Below, one piece after another: positions 3,040 through 23,270 of a DNA stretch of 24,000 nucleotides. The notes beneath the pieces were generated by a model. The model made no database searches and was not told where the DNA came from. It was given only the letters and a program-made list of their open reading frames with translations. Both the position numbers and the translations under genes were made by a program. The first letter of the stretch is position 1. The number at the start of each line of letters is the position of its first letter. Origin of the DNA: Chitinophagales bacterium. GTDB lineage: Bacteria > Bacteroidota > Bacteroidia > Chitinophagales > Chitinophagaceae. The DNA is taken from assembly GCA_038203525.1 (NCBI GenBank), contig JBBRDW010000033.1, forward strand, positions 1 through 24,000, written 5' to 3'.

Positions 3040-3136
3040 AAGAAAACCTTCACCAGCAGACCCGTCATTGTGTGTTATCACCAACGACTTTCGCTTTAAT
3101 CTTCGCTGCGATTAAAGCTCCATAAATAATCAGAAC

Positions 3137-3155
3137 GTACAAGAGTGCGACGCAA
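3137..3155 (+). repeat. 19-bp core repeat GTACAAGAGTGCGACGCAA (exact)
   Basis: Exact 19/19 match, intergenic. It is followed 25 nt later by CCGGGCTAAAAAATATTA (3181-3198). Confidence 0.95.
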
Positions 3156-3453
3156 GAAAAGCTGCACAGCATATCTGCTGCCGGGCTAAAAAATATTACA
3201 CATAATATCTGCTTCCTGTTGCTAAAATACCGCTCCCCTTTAACGATGTGGATTTGCAGCTACATTCAGCAGTTGGTTTTTTGTGCAGAACTTAGATTGG
3301 TGCGGCGCAATTTTATAGCAGCCCTGATAAATGCGGCGCCAAACTCCCGGCTTTACCCAAACACAGGATATATAAAAAATCTTTTGCCAATTTGATTTGA
3401 ATTCGCATGCAACGGCATGAAGATTGCGCTTGTCTGTATAAAGAAAGCAGTTT

Positions 3454-4110: not shown

Positions 4111-4290
4111 TTGTACCGTTACCCTTTATTATTTTTATAGAAAACCCGCAATTTGCCTGTTAATATTTTTGTATCAGTCTCCACTACTACTATCAGGTTC
4201 TCGTTGCAGCTTGCCCCGCGCATGGCGCATATGCGGCAAGCTAAGGAATACATTTATTGACCCAACAGCATCGCTACTATTGAGTTTCCG

Positions 4291-4309
4291 TTGCGTCGCA
4301 CTCTTGTAC
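4291..4309 (-). repeat. 19-bp core repeat (exact, reverse orientation TTGCGTCGCACTCTTGTAC)
   Basis: Exact 19/19 match, intergenic, downstream of the hemolysin-III gene. Confidence 0.95.
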
Positions 4310-4503
4310 TTTTGGTTCTCTATGCGACTTTCAGAACTCAGTTGTTTTTTTTCCTTGCAAATGAAAGCGAAGATTATTCGGCAACGCATTAATATTTAAA
4401 ACTATTTACTAAATCTTCATTGCAAGACAACCTAAAACCATTACTGGTAAACACTTTCAGCGATTTTTGTCAAAAATTAGGTTGACGCATAAGCGCCCAT
4501 GGC

Positions 4504-4522
4504 GGTGGTCGCACGCTTGTAC
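4504..4522 (-). repeat. 19-bp core repeat, degenerate copy (14/19)
   Basis: GGTGGTCGCACGCTTGTAC. A weakly complementary partner GCGCAAGAGTTAGCTATGCGGCCAC lies at 4564-4588. Confidence 0.5.
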
Positions 4523-4841: not shown

Positions 4842-5294
4842 TTACTTCTTTAATCGGCGCACCAGCTTTTGTAGGGTGGCCGCTGCTTTTGCAGGCTTTA
4901 GGTCACACTCCCAAACGATGATAATTTTCCAGCCTTCTTTCTTTAAAGCTTTTACAGCTTTTGCATCATTGTCTTTGTTCATATTTATTTTTTGTACCCA
5001 CCATTCGCTGCTTGTTTGCGGAACTTTAAAATATAAACAGTTGGTATGCCCATGCCAGAAACAGCCGTGTATAAAGATTACGGTTTTATATTTTGGTAAA
5101 ACAATATCTGGTTTGCCGGGTAGTTGCTTTCGCCTTTCTTCTGTAGGAGAGGGGCGGGGGGTGAGGCCGTGCAGTTTATAACGAAAGCCCTGTGCATACA
5201 GAAATTTACGCACCAGCATTTCGGGCTTTGCCTTGGTGCTGCGTATGCGGCTCATATTGTAGCTGCGCTGTTCTTTGGTAGGCACATCGGCCAT
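4842..5294 (-). CDS. vsr: Very-short-patch repair endonuclease (Vsr), copy 2 (paralog of 2072..2524)
   Basis: MADVPTKEQRSYNMSRIRSTKAKPE...LPGKPDIVLPKYKTVIFIHGCFWHGH...VWEC. It is 150 aa, the same length as copy 1, and collinear with it. Confidence 0.92.
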   Translation of the reverse strand: MADVPTKEQRSYNMSRIRSTKAKPEMLVRKFLYAQGFRYKLHGLTPRPSPTEERRKQLPGKPDIVLPKYKTVIFIHGCFWHGHTNCLYFKVPQTSSEWWVQKINMNKDNDAKAVKALKKEGWKIIIVWECDLKPAKAAATLQKLVRRLKK

Positions 5295-6179: not shown

Positions 6180-7310
6180 ATGCAACCACTTCCGCTTACT
6201 GTAAAAAGATCTATAGAATTAATGGGCCTGGTATTGGCTGCAGCGATTGTAGTGCAAGGCCAGCAAATCATCATGCCCCTGCTCATGGCTTTTTTTATGA
6301 GCATTGTATTGCTACCCATTTACCGCTTTCTTAAAAAGCATAAAATGCCCGAATTGTTATCCATTTTTCTTTCACTGATGGTCATGATCATTATCATAAG
6401 CCTCATCATTTTTTTTATCAGTTCGCAGATAACGCCGCTTATAAAAGATTTTCCACAGATAAGGGAAAATATTACACGGCATATTAATGATTTAAGCGCA
6501 TGGTTTGGCGAAAGAACCAATATCTCTACAGTAGAACAATCCAAATTTTTAAACGACCAAAGTAATAATTTACTCAATTATGCGGCTAATATTTTAGGCG
6601 GTGCGGCGGGCACATTGGGTACTGCCTTTATCTTTTTTGGCCTGCTGCCAGTGTACACTTTTTTAATGTTGTACTACAAGGTAATCTTAATGCGGTTTGT
6701 GTATATGTGGTTTCCGCAGGAGAGCCATCCACGTGTAAAAGTAGTGGTACAGCAAACGGAAACTATTGTTAAAAGTTATATACTCGGCCTGCTGATACAG
6801 ATCACTTATATCACTATCTTACTGGGAGGTTCGCTCGCACTTTTTGGCATAAAGCACGCCCTGCTCATAGGTATTGTGTTTGGGGTGCTTAACCTTATAC
6901 CCTATATAGGCGCTTTGTTCGGTAATATTATCGGGGTGTTGTTAACCCTCAGTTCATCGCAGGATATTGGGCCGGTGATAACCGTGCTGGTAACCATAGC
7001 CGTGGTTCAGTTCCTCGATAATAATATTTTAATGCCCAGCATCGTGGGCTCTAAAGTAAGGATCAATGCACTGGTTTGTCTTGCCGGTGTCTTTATTGGT
7101 GGTGCACTGGCCGGTATACCCGGCATGTTTCTTTCGCTGCCGCTTATTGCCGTGTTTAAAGTTATATTCGATCATACAGACCGGTTTAAACATTGGGGTA
7201 TTCTTTTTGGTGACGAAATGGAGGCTAAAAAGCCAAACTTAAAAATTTTGAACTGGAAAAAGAATGCCGGACAAAACAGCGTAAAAAAGAAAAAGGAAGA
7301 ACAAGGTTGA
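6180..7310 (+). CDS. AI-2E family transporter (PerM/YhhT-like permease)
   Basis: Polytopic membrane protein of 376 aa. The C-terminal region LNLIPYIGALFGN...FLDNNILMPSIVGSKVRINAL...GIPGMFLSLPLIAV is typical of the family. Confidence 0.85.
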   Translation: MQPLPLTVKRSIELMGLVLAAAIVVQGQQIIMPLLMAFFMSIVLLPIYRFLKKHKMPELLSIFLSLMVMIIIISLIIFFISSQITPLIKDFPQIRENITRHINDLSAWFGERTNISTVEQSKFLNDQSNNLLNYAANILGGAAGTLGTAFIFFGLLPVYTFLMLYYKVILMRFVYMWFPQESHPRVKVVVQQTETIVKSYILGLLIQITYITILLGGSLALFGIKHALLIGIVFGVLNLIPYIGALFGNIIGVLLTLSSSQDIGPVITVLVTIAVVQFLDNNILMPSIVGSKVRINALVCLAGVFIGGALAGIPGMFLSLPLIAVFKVIFDHTDRFKHWGILFGDEMEAKKPNLKILNWKKNAGQNSVKKKKEEQG

Positions 7311-7343
7311 TGTATCCAGCTTTCGAACTTTCTTCAGCTTTGG

Positions 7344-7479
7344 TTGTGTCACTCACTTGTACGTTCAGCACTTTATTCAGCAATTAGCGGTCAGGTATCA
7401 GCAATAACAGCAAGCCGTGTTTCCAAACGCTGACTGATGAAAGCTGAAAGTTATTCTTAAGTACAAGAGTGCGACGCAA
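7344..7479. repeat. Composite A: inverted pair of core repeats (variant arm 7344-7362, exact arm 7461-7479) around a 98-nt self-complementary spacer
   Basis: TTGTGTCACTCACTTGTAC ... GTACAAGAGTGCGACGCAA. The spacer contains complementary blocks (TTCAGC/GCTGAA, CGGTCAG/CTGACTG). Confidence 0.9.
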
Positions 7480-7737
7480 CGATGTTGAATAAAGAACCCA
7501 CGCCTGGCCACAAAAGAAAAAATAAAAGTTAGCCGGGCAGCAAATGCCCGTGCTATAAAAAAATATTAAAACAGATAAACAGGTAGGTTAAACTGCTGGT
7601 TTAAACCATTGATTAAGTTACCTCCAAAATTACTATCCCACGCCTGACTTTGCCACCAATTAAGGCTAATGATTTGATAATTAACGAAAGCAGTTTTTTT
7701 TCGTTTCGCCCACTACAATAAGCATATTGAAGAAAAA

Positions 7738-9316
7738 TTTAGATCAATAAAAATTTTTCGCGGATCACTGGCATCAATTACATTACAGCTATTTATTGCT
7801 TTAGGGATGCTTCATTTTGGGAGCGAGAAGAGCGAATCTATACTTTTTTTATTATGTTTTACAAGGCTCACCTGCATCTTATCAGACGTTTTGCGCAGCG
7901 ATGTTTCGTTGAAAGTGGGCTTCGCTTTGTTCACCTTCTGTAGCACCAAATTCTGCAATGCAAATGCAATATATCATAAACAGATATTACCTTCTATTCT
8001 GCTGTATGTCCAATGAAACATGGGTCTTGTTTGCAAATTCGATTTGAAGGTGCGTAAGCTGTCTTCTATTTTATTTTCGTCTAAGGCATAAGCTTCTTTA
8101 CCATCGGATTTGAAGAACAACCGCGCTGGCTTTTGCTTGAGCAATCCAGGGTTTTCCAATAGCTTTTTGCCTGTTTACCGTTTGTCTTCCCAGTCGTGTT
8201 TATCCTTCTTTGCCCTGTTGGCGGAATAGGTAGCAAAGATTGTTTTGCCCTCCTGATTAATAGTAGGTGTACTTAATAACTACAGCTACATCAACATGAT
8301 TATTGTGTACCCACTCGTGCTTATAATTCGATAAATTAAGCAATGGCGCCTGTATGCTTTGGGTAAGGTTTTCAGCCTTTCACCTATAATAAATTCATAG
8401 CTTTTGCCAGTAGTAATTTGCAGGTTGTTGTTAGAGGGCATACCTCTGTCAGCAACTACAATTATTTTATCAATCTGGTACTGGTTCTGTAAATCATCCA
8501 ACGCTTTTTCAAACGTATGTCTTTCATAAGTATCTCCTTTAAAAATGCAATAGCCAATCGGGTTTTTATCCCTGTTTATTTTCATGCAAAAAAGTATTAA
8601 AGCATTGCCAATTTTACCATTTTTACCAAAACCCATCGGGCGCAGTTCACCTCCTTTTTGTACTTCATGCTCCAGATAAAAAGTAGTTGCAACATAAAAG
8701 ACAACATCTAATTTTTGATTAAATAAAACTCTGCCTGTTGTAAAAATTTGCTGTTGAATGAAAAAGCTGTTATGCTTGCTGCTGGGCTCTTGTAATCGTT
8801 CTAAGCGCATCAGAAAAACGCTATTGTATAAATTAAACTGAAGTTTACTTTTGTTCTCTATTCTTCTAAAAATATCGTGTAAACCATACTGTTGTAAAGC
8901 CTTACTTCAGATTTGCTGATACCCATAATTATACCTGCCAATTTTTTGAAGAGCTTCTTGCAGTAAAGCTTTTATTTGGCCTCCTCCTATTTCAAATAAC
9001 CTAATACCAATAGCTCTAAGCTGCGCCTCCATATAATCATCTACCTTGCCTAAGTGTATAAAATCCGATGCGTTGATTGGCCGCCTGCATTGCGATAGCT
9101 TTCCAGTATTCGCAAAAAAGTTGCTGATGCTTTTTTCTCCACTCTAAGAAATGGCATACTACAACACTACAGGGTACGATAGCAAAAATAAAACAGTGAG
9201 AAAAAATCGGCTCACTGCATTTTTTTGCAAATCAAGTAATACCATTTTTCAGCAATCAGCTTCAGGATATTTCAAAAATGGATGTGTCAAAGTCAAGAAA
9301 AATGTATTGATCTAAA
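7738..9316 (-). mobile_element. IS1634-like (IS4-superfamily DDE) insertion sequence remnant with candidate terminal inverted repeats
   Basis: TTTAGATCAATA at 7738-7749 has its exact complement TATTGATCTAAA at 9305-9316, and adjacent ATTTTTC blocks also match. The pair encloses the transposase fragments. The element is about 1.58 kb. Confidence 0.5.
7974..9157 (-). pseudogene. IS1634-family transposase, broken by frameshifts and stops
   Basis: The N-terminus from complement 9155-9157 reads MPFLRVEKKASATFLRILESYRNAGGQSTHRIL. The frame then shifts near 9055 into LGKVDDYMEAQLRAIGIR. The middle fragment 8286..8810 carries DKIIVVADRGMPSNNNL (DDE region). The C-terminal fragment 7974..8159 carries RPMFHWTYSRIEGNICL. 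Confidence 0.75.
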
Positions 9317-12196: not shown

Positions 12197-12455
12197 AACT
12201 TGTTATTAGTTTGGTTCAGAAGCTAAAATATCGAATTTATTGATAAGTCATTTTTTTGTTAAGGGAACAGCCGAAACTACAATCTGAAGTAACCCCATTT
12301 TAATTTGGTTAGTTCGTTATTTTCCAGGTCAGCATTTCTGCTTGGTAGCTATCCATTATTTTACTGATTGTATTGCGATTGCTCTGGCAGCTGCAGTTTT
12401 AGACCAATAAAATACAAGGTTATTAACCCAGCTTTGGTAGTACAATTAAACATTA

Positions 12456-12474
12456 TTGCGTCGCACTCTTGTAC
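12456..12474 (-). repeat. 19-bp core repeat (exact, reverse orientation)
   Basis: Exact 19/19 match in the divergent intergenic region between the TonB receptor and the Rieske gene. It overlaps only the implausible upstream extension of ORF 12469..13695. Confidence 0.95.
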
Positions 12475-12612
12475 AGTTTTTCCACTATTCCGCATGTGCC
12501 AGAGGTAAAACTAATTAACCGGCTTTTATATATTCCGGATGTGGCATTGTATAATAAAGTAGCTACCAGTGCTCCCTTCAAAATAATTAACTTCGGCAAA
12601 ATTGTTTTCCAC

Positions 12613-14928: not shown

Positions 14929-15090
14929 AATAATTTTACAGGAAACTGTTAAGTGTTTATGCTGCCACAGACTTTGGGTACAATTTATTTGTAATTTATT
15001 TGGTTCAAAAACAAGCTCTTGAACGGAAAGTTTTTTATTGGTAAGGTGAAATTTTTTTGGCCCGGCTACAAATCTTTGTTTAATCTTTTG

Positions 15091-15225
15091 TTGCGTCGCA
15101 CACTTGTACTTTTGGTAATAATGGCGGCAAATTCTGTGCAGTACGTAGCCTGCCGCCGTTTGCTATTTTAAAAGGCTGCTGCACATTGCCCAAAAAAGAA
15201 CAAGGCGTACAAGTGAGTGACACAA
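15091..15225. repeat. Composite C: inverted pair of core repeats (18/19 arm 15091-15109, variant arm 15207-15225) around a 97-nt self-complementary spacer
   Basis: TTGCGTCGCACACTTGTAC ... GTACAAGTGAGTGACACAA. The right arm is the exact reverse complement of the variant arm at 7344-7362. The spacer contains GGCGGCA/TGCCGCC, TGTGCAG/CTGCACA and TTTTGG/CCCAAAA pairs. Confidence 0.9.
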
Positions 15226-15339
15226 CAGGTGCCTAATAGCAGCAATGCAGCCCGGTATAAAATATTTACTGTAGAAATTAAAATCCCGTTCTGAATTTTC
15301 GGAAGAGATTTTTTTCTCTCATGCGCAAATTTCTTTAAG

Positions 15340-17016: not shown

Positions 17017-17209
17017 TTGTCGCCAGGTGCAAAGTAATTTTTTAGCTCAGCTGTATAACATCAAAGATGCTTATACTGTAGCTTGCCCGCCGATTCGGCA
17101 GCCGCAAGCTCATAAGTTCAGCACTTAACTAAACAGTAAGGAACGAACATGGAATAATTACCTGCTGATCATCCAGGGCCTCTTTGCCTTGCTGCCTTTA
17201 GTTAACAAA

Positions 17210-17228
17210 GTACAAGCGTGCGACGCAA
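17210..17228 (+). repeat. 19-bp core repeat (18/19: GTACAAGCGTGCGACGCAA)
   Basis: One mismatch. It is followed by AAGCCCGATAAGAATTACCTAAGCCCGGCTAATAAAAATTATTTA (17230-17275). A possible decayed partner ATGCTTATACTGTAG lies at 17067-17081. Confidence 0.9.
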
Positions 17229-17335
17229 CGAAGCCCGATAAGAATTACCTAAGCCCGGCTAATAAAAATTATTTATTAAGTTACCTTGCTATCATTTATC
17301 TTCAAACTGTGAACTAAATACTGTAAAGGAAAACT

Positions 17336-18996: not shown

Positions 18997-19043
18997 TAAA
19001 TACATTTTATGAACCGGGCAATAGAACATGAATGAGGCTTTAC

Positions 19044-19062
19044 TTGCGTCGCACTCTTGTAC
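19044..19062 (-). repeat. 19-bp core repeat (exact, reverse orientation)
   Basis: Exact 19/19 match. The upstream flank 18997-19043 is the reverse-complement homolog of the flank following the 20899 copy (AAGCCTCATTCAT..GCCCGG..AAAAT). Confidence 0.95.
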
Positions 19063-19139
19063 TTTCTCAATAAAATTCAGCCATGACGTACCAGTGAAAC
19101 AAATCGAAAATCTAAGATCTAAAAATCGCAAATCAAATC

Positions 19140-20822: not shown

Positions 20823-20898
20823 ACGCTAAAGTATCAATTTACAAACATAACACGAGTTGTTTTACCCGCTGCGATAAAAGCCCAATATTCCGCTGAAC

Positions 20899-20917
20899 GT
20901 ACAAGAGTGCGACGCAA
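20899..20917 (+). repeat. 19-bp core repeat (exact)
   Basis: Exact 19/19 match in the divergent region between crp-like and dinB. It is followed by CGGAAGCCTCATTCATATTCCCAAGCCCGGCACAAAATATC (20918-20958). Confidence 0.95.
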
Positions 20918-20979
20918 CGGAAGCCTCATTCATATTCCCAAGCCCGGCACAAAATATCTTTTCTAACTTAGCTGCATCA

Positions 20980-22977: not shown

Positions 22978-23012
22978 ATGGGCCGGGCAGCCGTACCCTG
23001 TGGCAACGTTCC

Positions 23013-23166
23013 TTGCGTCGCACTCTTGTACTTTGGGGAAGTATAGCAGCAAGTTCACGTGTTCAACAGTTCACGAGTTAACTACGCCGTTTACATTTAA
23101 AAGCCCGTAAACCTTTGAACTTGTGAACTGCTTCAACTTATTCTTAAGTACAAGAGTGCGACGCAA
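23013..23166. repeat. Composite B: inverted pair of exact core repeats (23013-23031 and 23148-23166) around a 116-nt self-complementary spacer
   Basis: TTGCGTCGCACTCTTGTAC ... GTACAAGAGTGCGACGCAA, both 19/19. The spacer pairs AGTTCACGTGTTCAACAGTT with AACCTTTGAACTTGTGAACT, and GTTTAC with GTAAAC. Confidence 0.95.
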
Positions 23167-23270
23167 CCAGGCCGCCATAAAAAGATTGGCTGGGATACTA
23201 AAAAATTGTCTTTTATGGTAGTTTATCGTTTTATTAGATATTCGGGTTTACATGTTACTAAGCTTTTAGA

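Follow-up and report, generated by a model that had tools for sequence, protein, structure and literature searches.

Three inverted-repeat composites in a Chitinophagales genome are facing copies of one interspersed intergenic repeat unit

Interspersed repeats of the REP/BIME type in Enterobacteria, and the RAYT-associated REPINs of Pseudomonas, are high-copy, extragenic sequences in which a conserved short core is embedded in looser surroundings. They occur as singles and as inverted doublets, form mosaics with small modules and persist vertically over long periods. The same can be said of the repeat unit described here, which was found in a 24,000-nt stretch of DNA from a Chitinophagales bacterium (the window) and in related loci, and whose C-type core (see below) contains CGTC, the tag of one REP super-family (PMC3733652). 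The features that define REPs and REPINs are nevertheless lacking. Instead of an imperfect palindrome or stem-loop of 20-40 nt, the unit has only an odd palindrome of 7-9 nt within its core. REPINs have a RAYT gene flanked by repeats, whereas 1.15 Mb of unit-bearing loci contained no homologue of the Y1 transposase and the Y1 gene of the window is flanked by different hairpins, so that an association with RAYTs was rejected. REPIN doublets, moreover, have a characteristic spacing and a compensatory hairpin, whereas paired units are separated by 24-186 nt and have arms of different types that anti-covary.

MITEs (Correia/NEMIS, RUP, ERIC) offer a second comparison. Like them, paired units form composites of 140-230 nt that are intergenic and bounded by terminal inverted repeats (16-19 of 20 arm positions match). 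MITE copies are, however, near-identical and share an interior, whereas the centres are unrelated throughout the unit family and most copies are "half" elements; in the loci examined, no transposase lies between inverted units. Neither Rfam nor the searchable literature on Chitinophagaceae repeats holds a description of such a family, sequence strings from it matching only irrelevant texts, and it appears to be undescribed.

Anatomy and distribution of the repeat unit

With up to 3 mismatches allowed, the core pattern GTTGCGTCGCACTCTTGTAC occurs 10 times in the window, whereas 100 dinucleotide-preserving shuffles of the window lead one to expect 0. Under a looser mismatch limit a variant, GTTGTGTCACTCACTTGTAC, is picked up twice as well, at 7343(+) and 15207(-), for a total of 12 cores in 24 kb, all of them intergenic and between ordinary chromosomal genes. 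Six belong to single units: 3137-3156(-), in a unit (3112..3196) with a hairpin module GCTTTAATC...GATTAAAGC on its tail side; 4290-4309(+), in unit 4250..4334, with a degenerate core-like copy at 4503-4522(+); 12455-12474(+), in unit 12415..12499, between genes for a TonB-dependent receptor and a Rieske oxygenase; 17210-17229(-), in unit 17185..17269; and 19043-19062(+) and 20899-20918(-), in units 19003..19087 and 20874..20958, which form a 68-nt inverted pair of 78% complementarity.

The remaining six cores make up three composites. Composite 1 (7343..7480) joins a V-type core at 7343-7362(+) to a C-type core at 7461-7480(-) across a 98-nt centre; composite 2 (15090..15226) joins a C-type core at 15090-15109(+) to a V-type core at 15207-15226(-) across 97 nt; and composite 3 (23012..23167) has C-type cores at both 23012-23031(+) and 23148-23167(-), 116 nt apart. 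All three lie downstream of gene 3' ends. The left unit of composite 1 has no T-tract because it abuts the stop codon of an AI-2E transporter gene at 7310, and composite 2 is flanked by convergent M23 peptidase and asparaginase genes. A preliminary description of this DNA had recognised the three head-to-head pairs, with their GTAC ends inward and with centres of these lengths, and had noted an identity of 30 nt between 7451-7480 and 23138-23167 that is exact; its pairs are real, its core starts were off by one base, the core being 20 nt long. The units at 7461(-) and 23148(-) have 38 nt in common at 92%. Each composite is thus two facing copies of one interspersed intergenic repeat unit within a shared intergenic region. 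It is not a distinct hairpin element, and its arms are ordinary members of a larger, mostly single-unit population.

Gap-free alignment of 207 units on the core, and the position matrix derived from it, describe a unit of about 85 nt in which sub-motif spacing is fixed. From left to right it consists of a T-tract (-38 to -33 when counted from the core's first base, with a T frequency of 0.6-0.8), a CCGGC box of the form CC(N)G(C) at -28 to -24 (CC at -28/-27, G at -25), a spacer, the 20-bp core and a short tail of about 22 nt reaching to about +42; spacer and tail are loosely conserved. The core itself is laid out as GTT, a short odd palindrome and CNCTTGTAC. The palindrome is TGCG-T-CGCA in the C-type core, GTTGCGTCGCACNCTTGTAC, and GTG-T-CAC in the V-type core given above, while other core classes have GTTGCGTCGCA in common and differ in their right halves. 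About 85% of the units in related DNA are single: in the loci, 151 C cores are single and 25 paired, and 19 V cores are single and 11 paired. One unit sub-family carries a tail-side hairpin module about 30 nt beyond the core, with the consensus (G)AGCTTTTAYCGMAGCGWAGATTRAAGCG, in the window at 3098-3126 and 20861-20890 and in many loci; with this extra module the repeats are mosaic and BIME-like in make-up.

The exact core was found in at least 108 DNA stretches in a scan of one genome per species. Among the matches listed, its carriers are Chitinophagaceae or Chitinophagales, or unclassified Bacteroidota and Sphingobacteriales MAGs, and the genera include Segetibacter, Ferruginibacter, Flavisolibacter, Foetidibacter, Limnovirga, Lacibacter, Pinibacter, Puia, Flavihumibacter, Hydrotalea and Paracnuella. 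Phage genomes (IMG/VR contigs L117, L118, L126, L135 and L141) also carry units, in the short gaps between integrase, terminase, portal, head and tail-sheath genes; some phage units span an entire gap, from stop codon to next start codon. Across the loci only 8 of 177 cores fall inside called ORFs. Units are present in about half of the intergenic regions, at a density of roughly one per 2 kb both in the window and in locus L109, and tandem, convergent and divergent contexts hold them at roughly background proportions. With 49, 41, 34 and 21 units in the four contexts, the first two being forward and reverse units between tandem genes, a rule for unit orientation relative to genes was rejected. 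No gene family recurs beside the units in the loci, and no transposase, recombinase or binding protein was identified as accompanying them there.

The window is a piece of chromosome of a Panacibacter-like Chitinophagaceae member, and its genes are ordinary, chromosomal and non-mobile. They include those for HlyIII, the AI-2E transporter, the TonB-dependent receptor, the Rieske oxygenase, the M23 peptidase, the asparaginase (93% identical to proteins labelled Panacibacter), two Vsr proteins, a MurQ-like protein, DNA polymerase IV and a peroxiredoxin. None of the window's genes encodes an integrase domain, and the only transposase-like genes are an IS200-like Y1 gene (1498-1944) and an IS1634 fragment. 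The different short GC-rich hairpins that surround the Y1 gene (983-1400 and 1955-2050, e.g. AAGCCCTTCGGGCTT and CTGCGGGTTTTACCCGCAG) form a cluster that holds a 100-nt segment twice, 140 nt apart (989-1088 and 1129-1228, 95% identical), and that looks like a separate REP-like family. The fragment of an IS1634-family transposase gene (8286-8810, - strand) scores 94.6 bits, below the 100-bit cut-off, over positions 114-251 of a 483-position profile and is probably a decayed IS. The two vsr paralogues (very-short-patch repair endonuclease; 2072-2524 and 4842-5294, both on the - strand) are 83% identical over 300 nt and lie 2.8 kb apart, on either side of the HlyIII gene and two units; neither has a recognisable cytosine methyltransferase gene next to it. 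Just outside the 7461 unit, at 7528-7560, a T-tract, a GCCCGGC-type box and a small hairpin, GGGCAtttgcTGCCC, occur with no adjoining core and may be the remnant of another unit.

Folding of the composites and of their centres

The three composites had been read as pointing to selection on a long hairpin or cruciform, or else on arm-binding proteins, with a 19-bp arm stem and centres that differ in sequence yet are each self-complementary. A 19-bp stem is available only to 23012/23148, where 19 of 20 core positions match; the other two composites oppose a C core to a V core and match at 16/20 and 17/20 positions. That the centres share no sequence is roughly correct, except that the first 22 nt or so on each side are weakly conserved unit tail; in composite 3 the arms continue to resemble each other, insertions and deletions aside, for about 45 nt into the centre. 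As wholes, the composites have strong folds (z = -2.6, -4.6 and -9.6 for composites 1, 2 and 3) because their arms pair trivially, most of the fold energy coming from the arms. Taken by themselves, only one of the three centres outdoes its shuffled controls, so that for the other two the outcome is the one that the preliminary description had named as refuting its hairpin: the z-score of 7363-7460 is -0.75 as RNA and -0.21/+0.22 as DNA (+/- strand), and that of 15110-15206 is -0.11 as RNA and -0.19/+0.15 as DNA. Only 23032-23147 is self-complementary, an extended quasi-palindrome that folds better than its controls (RNA z -2.27, DNA z -1.84/-2.83), and the complementary blocks quoted earlier for 23013-23166 are indeed found there and paired in the fold.

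A wider set of 19 composites from many genomes has centres of 24-186 nt that are unrelated in sequence, which bears out the earlier view that these are not a simple MITE with a shared interior. Their median centre z is -1.1, and 7/19 have z<-2; by eye, some of the low-z centres are long quasi-palindromes (L090), and others owe their structure to independent local hairpins (L010). The arms show the opposite of compensation. In 16 distinct arm pairs, variable positions are paired in 84.1% of cases against 86.6 +/- 1.1 after shuffling (497/500 shuffles equal or exceed the observed value), and changes on both sides number 2 against 4.6 (500/500 shuffles). Mismatched C/V arms occur in 11/19 composites against about 25% expected (p=0.002), and V/V arms in 0/19, though sampling would rarely have caught V/V composites. 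Centres are shorter in C/V than in C/C composites (p=0.02), and it is C/V composites that predominate at the shortest centres, the C/V enrichment being robust solely for close pairs. It is where the cores lie close that C/V arms are favoured, as if perfect palindromes at short range were being avoided and not selected.

Centre folding, arm anti-covariation, the C/V excess and the predominance of single units all go against selection on a hairpin or cruciform with structure-preserving centres. A centre is better described as two unit tails with intervening DNA, sometimes including local hairpins, than as a selected structure. The case also carries a caution: strong folding of an inverted repeat does not show that a hairpin is selected.

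Several functions of the unit at the level of transcription or RNA were considered. No conserved secondary structure was found in single units on either strand, RNAalifold giving about 0 kcal/mol for 176 of them on each; the whole window has no Rfam match at E<=1 and contains no tRNA or tmRNA. The Bacteroidetes sigma-A motif TAnnTTTG occurs at the T-tract in 0/207 units, and no -7/-33 promoter motif of Bacteroidetes stands at a fixed place in the units, although 9/264 form TAnnTTTG by chance where GTAC meets TTTTG. One spacer sub-family (e.g. L002, L014, L030 and window 23000-23016) has TGGCAT-N5/6-TTGC over the spacer/core junction, which resembles a sigma-54 -24/-12 promoter; its spacing is variable (by eye) and the other spacer sub-families are without the GG, and a sigma-54-like promoter (TGGCAT-N5-TTGC) was rejected as a general feature. 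An intrinsic terminator was rejected as well, a significant hairpin upstream of the T-tract being present in only about 10% of units, and so was a small peptide, the ORF from the T-tract NTG stopping after about 8 codons in one example inspected by eye. RNA-guided transcription by dCas12f (PMC13472631) concerns few target sites per genome and does not fit the units.

Core types, insertions and the orientation of neighbouring units

Among 176 C and 30 V cores we found about one intermediate at the diagnostic positions 5, 9 and 11, a count in which the invariance of the C type is partly inflated since loci were collected by exact C-core matches, the V type being absent from the search query. Conservation at a single site is illustrated by the 12455 core, which is identical at 19/19 positions at the same site of a genome with 72-78% identity in the matching genes; the remainder of that intergenic region has diverged and is barely alignable. 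Between two genomes that are 92% identical, 3/7 compared unit sites have switched between C and V (L109 1021, 2664 and 14547 against L112 1780, 2662 and 14821), each switch comprising three coordinated changes within 7 nt in flanks that are 83-95% identical. Such whole-type switching without intermediates calls for templated replacement or very strong epistasis; independent point mutations could not produce it. The flanks of different copies are about 0.38 identical within genomes and 0.35 between genomes or genera, near random, so that the copies do not stem from a recent burst of copying; two neighbouring L109 copies are 82% identical in their flanks. The preliminary description had named arm-binding proteins as an alternative to hairpin selection, and judged from a 20-bp core that is nearly invariant, V type included, in drifting flanks, this is still the most plausible reading.

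In some copies the core is interrupted at its exact dyad centre, between GTTGC(G) and (G)TCGCAC, by insertions, 13 to about 75 nt long, that are palindromic and GC-rich. In phage L118, at about 14270, the site reads CTTGC-GCCTGCCTGCCGGCAGGCAG-GTCGCAC where L117 (13221) and L135 (7646) have CTTGC-GTCGCAC; one such insertion, carried by one of three related phages and missing from the other two, is a perfect palindrome of 20 nt. Other dyad insertions lie at L109 11057, L109 14064-14131, L029 4455, L112 13217 and L113 about 10990. Relatives with a 93% identical asparaginase lack the 15090 composite and have instead a single orthologous unit with an interrupted core. At a candidate empty site in L135 compared with L118, the entire spacer is replaced, and no target-site duplication is visible at T-tract ends.

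Neighbouring units are preferentially inverted. Among profile-detected units of loci L001-L145 and the window, 110 neighbouring pairs are inverted and 29 direct (p about 3e-12), and the bias holds for single units more than 300 nt apart (51 inverted, 11 direct; p=3e-7). Close pairs that share one intergenic region are head-to-head in 34 cases and tail-to-tail in 1. Between inverted neighbours lie mostly single genes or one-directional gene sets, in either direction relative to the units, and the bracketed genes are core metabolic ones (e.g. PGK, IMPDH, GcvP and urocanase). Put compactly, a transcription unit tends to carry repeat units either at both ends, T-tracts inward, or at neither end, a composite being then the junction between two bracketed transcription units. 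The mirror description, in which +[cargo or nothing]- modules never abut, fits equally well: the flank similarity of paired units does not separate +...- from -...+ intervals. The two segments in which L109 and L112 differ each lie between +...- units.

Competing explanations and comparison with described systems

In the reading that we prefer, at about even odds, an interspersed element of the REP/BIME kind has a core that a protein recognises on DNA, and each composite is two of its copies placed head to head. The 20-bp core would be the site on double-stranded DNA of a sequence-specific protein conserved across Chitinophagaceae, and the T-tract and CCGGC box, at their fixed spacing, may provide accessory contacts or bending signals. 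The element would belong to a class carried long-term by its host and would act as DNA, not as structured RNA. The uniformity of its copies would result from purifying selection together with copy-correction by other copies, which would account for whole-type swaps at orthologous sites without intermediates. We infer protein recognition, copy-correction and the cause of the orientation rules; what is observed is the anatomy and distribution of the unit, the invariance of its core, type switching, the orientation rules themselves and the lack of promoter, terminator and RNA-structure signals. Some observations weigh against this reading. Strong orientation rules are not predicted for a passive repeat and hint at a pairwise function or active recombination, C and V cores cannot make a REP-type stem-loop, some composites are true long quasi-palindromes (the 7/19 centres with z<-2), and the unit-bearing loci yielded none of the proteins expected to act on the units, be it a binding protein, a transposase or a recombinase.

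The units might instead be oriented sites of an undescribed genome-wide Chitinophagaceae system, in which a protein reads the core "alleles" C and V and acts on pairs of sites, an idea that we entertain only tentatively. Transcription units would then come to lie between inverted sites, neighbours in direct orientation would be lost, and an intergenic region could be shared by a head-to-head pair alone. Such a system might invert and exchange modules all along the chromosome, or it might set domain boundaries or act as an insulator. It is similarly doubtful, in our estimate, that the units are the recombination sites of a chromosome-wide site-specific or transposase-derived system, with inverted sites bracketing genes or operons as in pdif modules or shufflons. 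In that case direct neighbours, which cause gene deletions, would be weeded out, and a composite would mark the junction of two bracketed modules or be itself an "empty" module. The excess of inverted neighbours, among single units as well as overall, and the almost exclusive head-to-head arrangement of close pairs agree with this, as do genes lying in either direction inside inverted pairs and the core types that switch beside the two bracketed segments differing between L109 and L112. Alternating inverted sites that bracket modules are likewise seen in pdif modules of Acinetobacter plasmids and in shufflons. The units, however, are chromosome-wide and bracket core metabolic genes; no recombinase was found in the loci, no inversion of a bracketed module was observed between relatives in the few comparisons possible, and breakpoints are not always at cores. 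With units in about half of the intergenic regions, indels are moreover likely to be unit-flanked by chance. The core, by inspection, is asymmetric with a 1-nt dyad centre and does not have the anatomy of pdif or shufflon sites, two arms around a 6-8 bp spacer; it is also, presumably, unlike dif or sfx sites.

Mobility of the composite as an active MITE/REPIN family, moved by a transposase encoded elsewhere (a RAYT-like Y1 or a DDE enzyme) and leaving singles as decayed halves, strikes us as unlikely. The TIR-like arms of fixed polarity, the occurrence of units in phages, the presence or absence of the 15090 composite between relatives, the likeness of the two L109 neighbours and of the 7461(-) and 23148(-) units, and the Y1 gene in the window would all suit it; the variable interiors and spacing, the preponderance of single copies, flanks so saturated that likeness within a genome is no greater than between genera, and the absence from the loci of visible target-site duplications and of a core-flanked transposase would not. 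We think it distinctly improbable that the units mark DNA for uptake or as "self", in the manner of DUS (Neisseria) or USS (Pasteurellaceae), and are spread and maintained by biased uptake and recombination. The two have much in common, namely about one copy per 1-2 kb, a family-wide core with coexisting "dialects", an AT-tract at fixed distance (here the T-tract), flanks that are not copied and inverted pairs close to the ends of genes; the units lack any signature of recent copying. Yet DUS and USS, which are much shorter, occur also in coding sequence, whereas units are strictly intergenic, save for the few in called ORFs, and have spacer sub-families that look common to several loci by eye. 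A unit appears to be gained by replacement of the whole spacer, not by point mutation, and an uptake marker predicts neither alternating orientation nor the head-to-head rule; we know of no natural competence in Chitinophagaceae. Nor do we see much probability in composites and other inverted pairs acting as RNA hairpins, be it to stabilise mRNA, to terminate transcription in both directions or to be cut by RNase III. A duplex of 20 bp is close to the smallest that RNase III accepts, and the low z-scores of whole composites and of some centres, like the position of the window composites behind gene 3' ends, are in keeping with such a role. Against it stand the share of the arms in the fold energy, the two window centres with z about 0, the anti-covarying arms enriched in C/V mismatches, and the predominance of single units, which take either orientation between tandem genes. 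The T-tract, too, lies before the stem and not after it and is seldom accompanied by a hairpin, and only 5/17 composites are between convergent genes.

Integron attC sites resemble the composites in having conserved ends, variable and sometimes self-complementary centres, a similar length (57-141 nt for attC) and GTT/AAC ends. Their polarity, RYYYAAC...GTTRRRY, is reversed with respect to the composites, 5'-GTTGCG...CGCAAC-3', in which GTT is outermost 5' and AAC outermost 3'. An integron was rejected on this wrong polarity, on the absence of an integrase from the window and on the ordinary chromosomal genes that lie in both directions between sites. Each of the REP/REPIN, MITE, attC, DUS and pdif classes thus has at least one defining feature that the units lack.

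Returning to the preferred reading, a REP/BIME-like element with a protein-recognised core, we consider the underlying repeat family more interesting than the original hairpin idea. If the density of about one unit per 2 kb holds genome-wide, it would by extrapolation be among the densest bacterial interspersed repeat families, with thousands of copies per genome. Its rules suggest that a specific protein is its partner and that copies may still be recombining with one another, which, if so, would matter for the stability of genomes and the evolution of gene order in a large family of soil and fresh water, and the core could be used as a metagenomic marker for the DNA of Chitinophagaceae and their phages. 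Unlike classical REPs and MITEs, the units have a 20-mer that is frozen over many genera, a wider range than is usual for a REP, two discrete core types that swap whole, a core centre that takes GC-rich palindromic insertions, and an orientation that alternates over kilobases.
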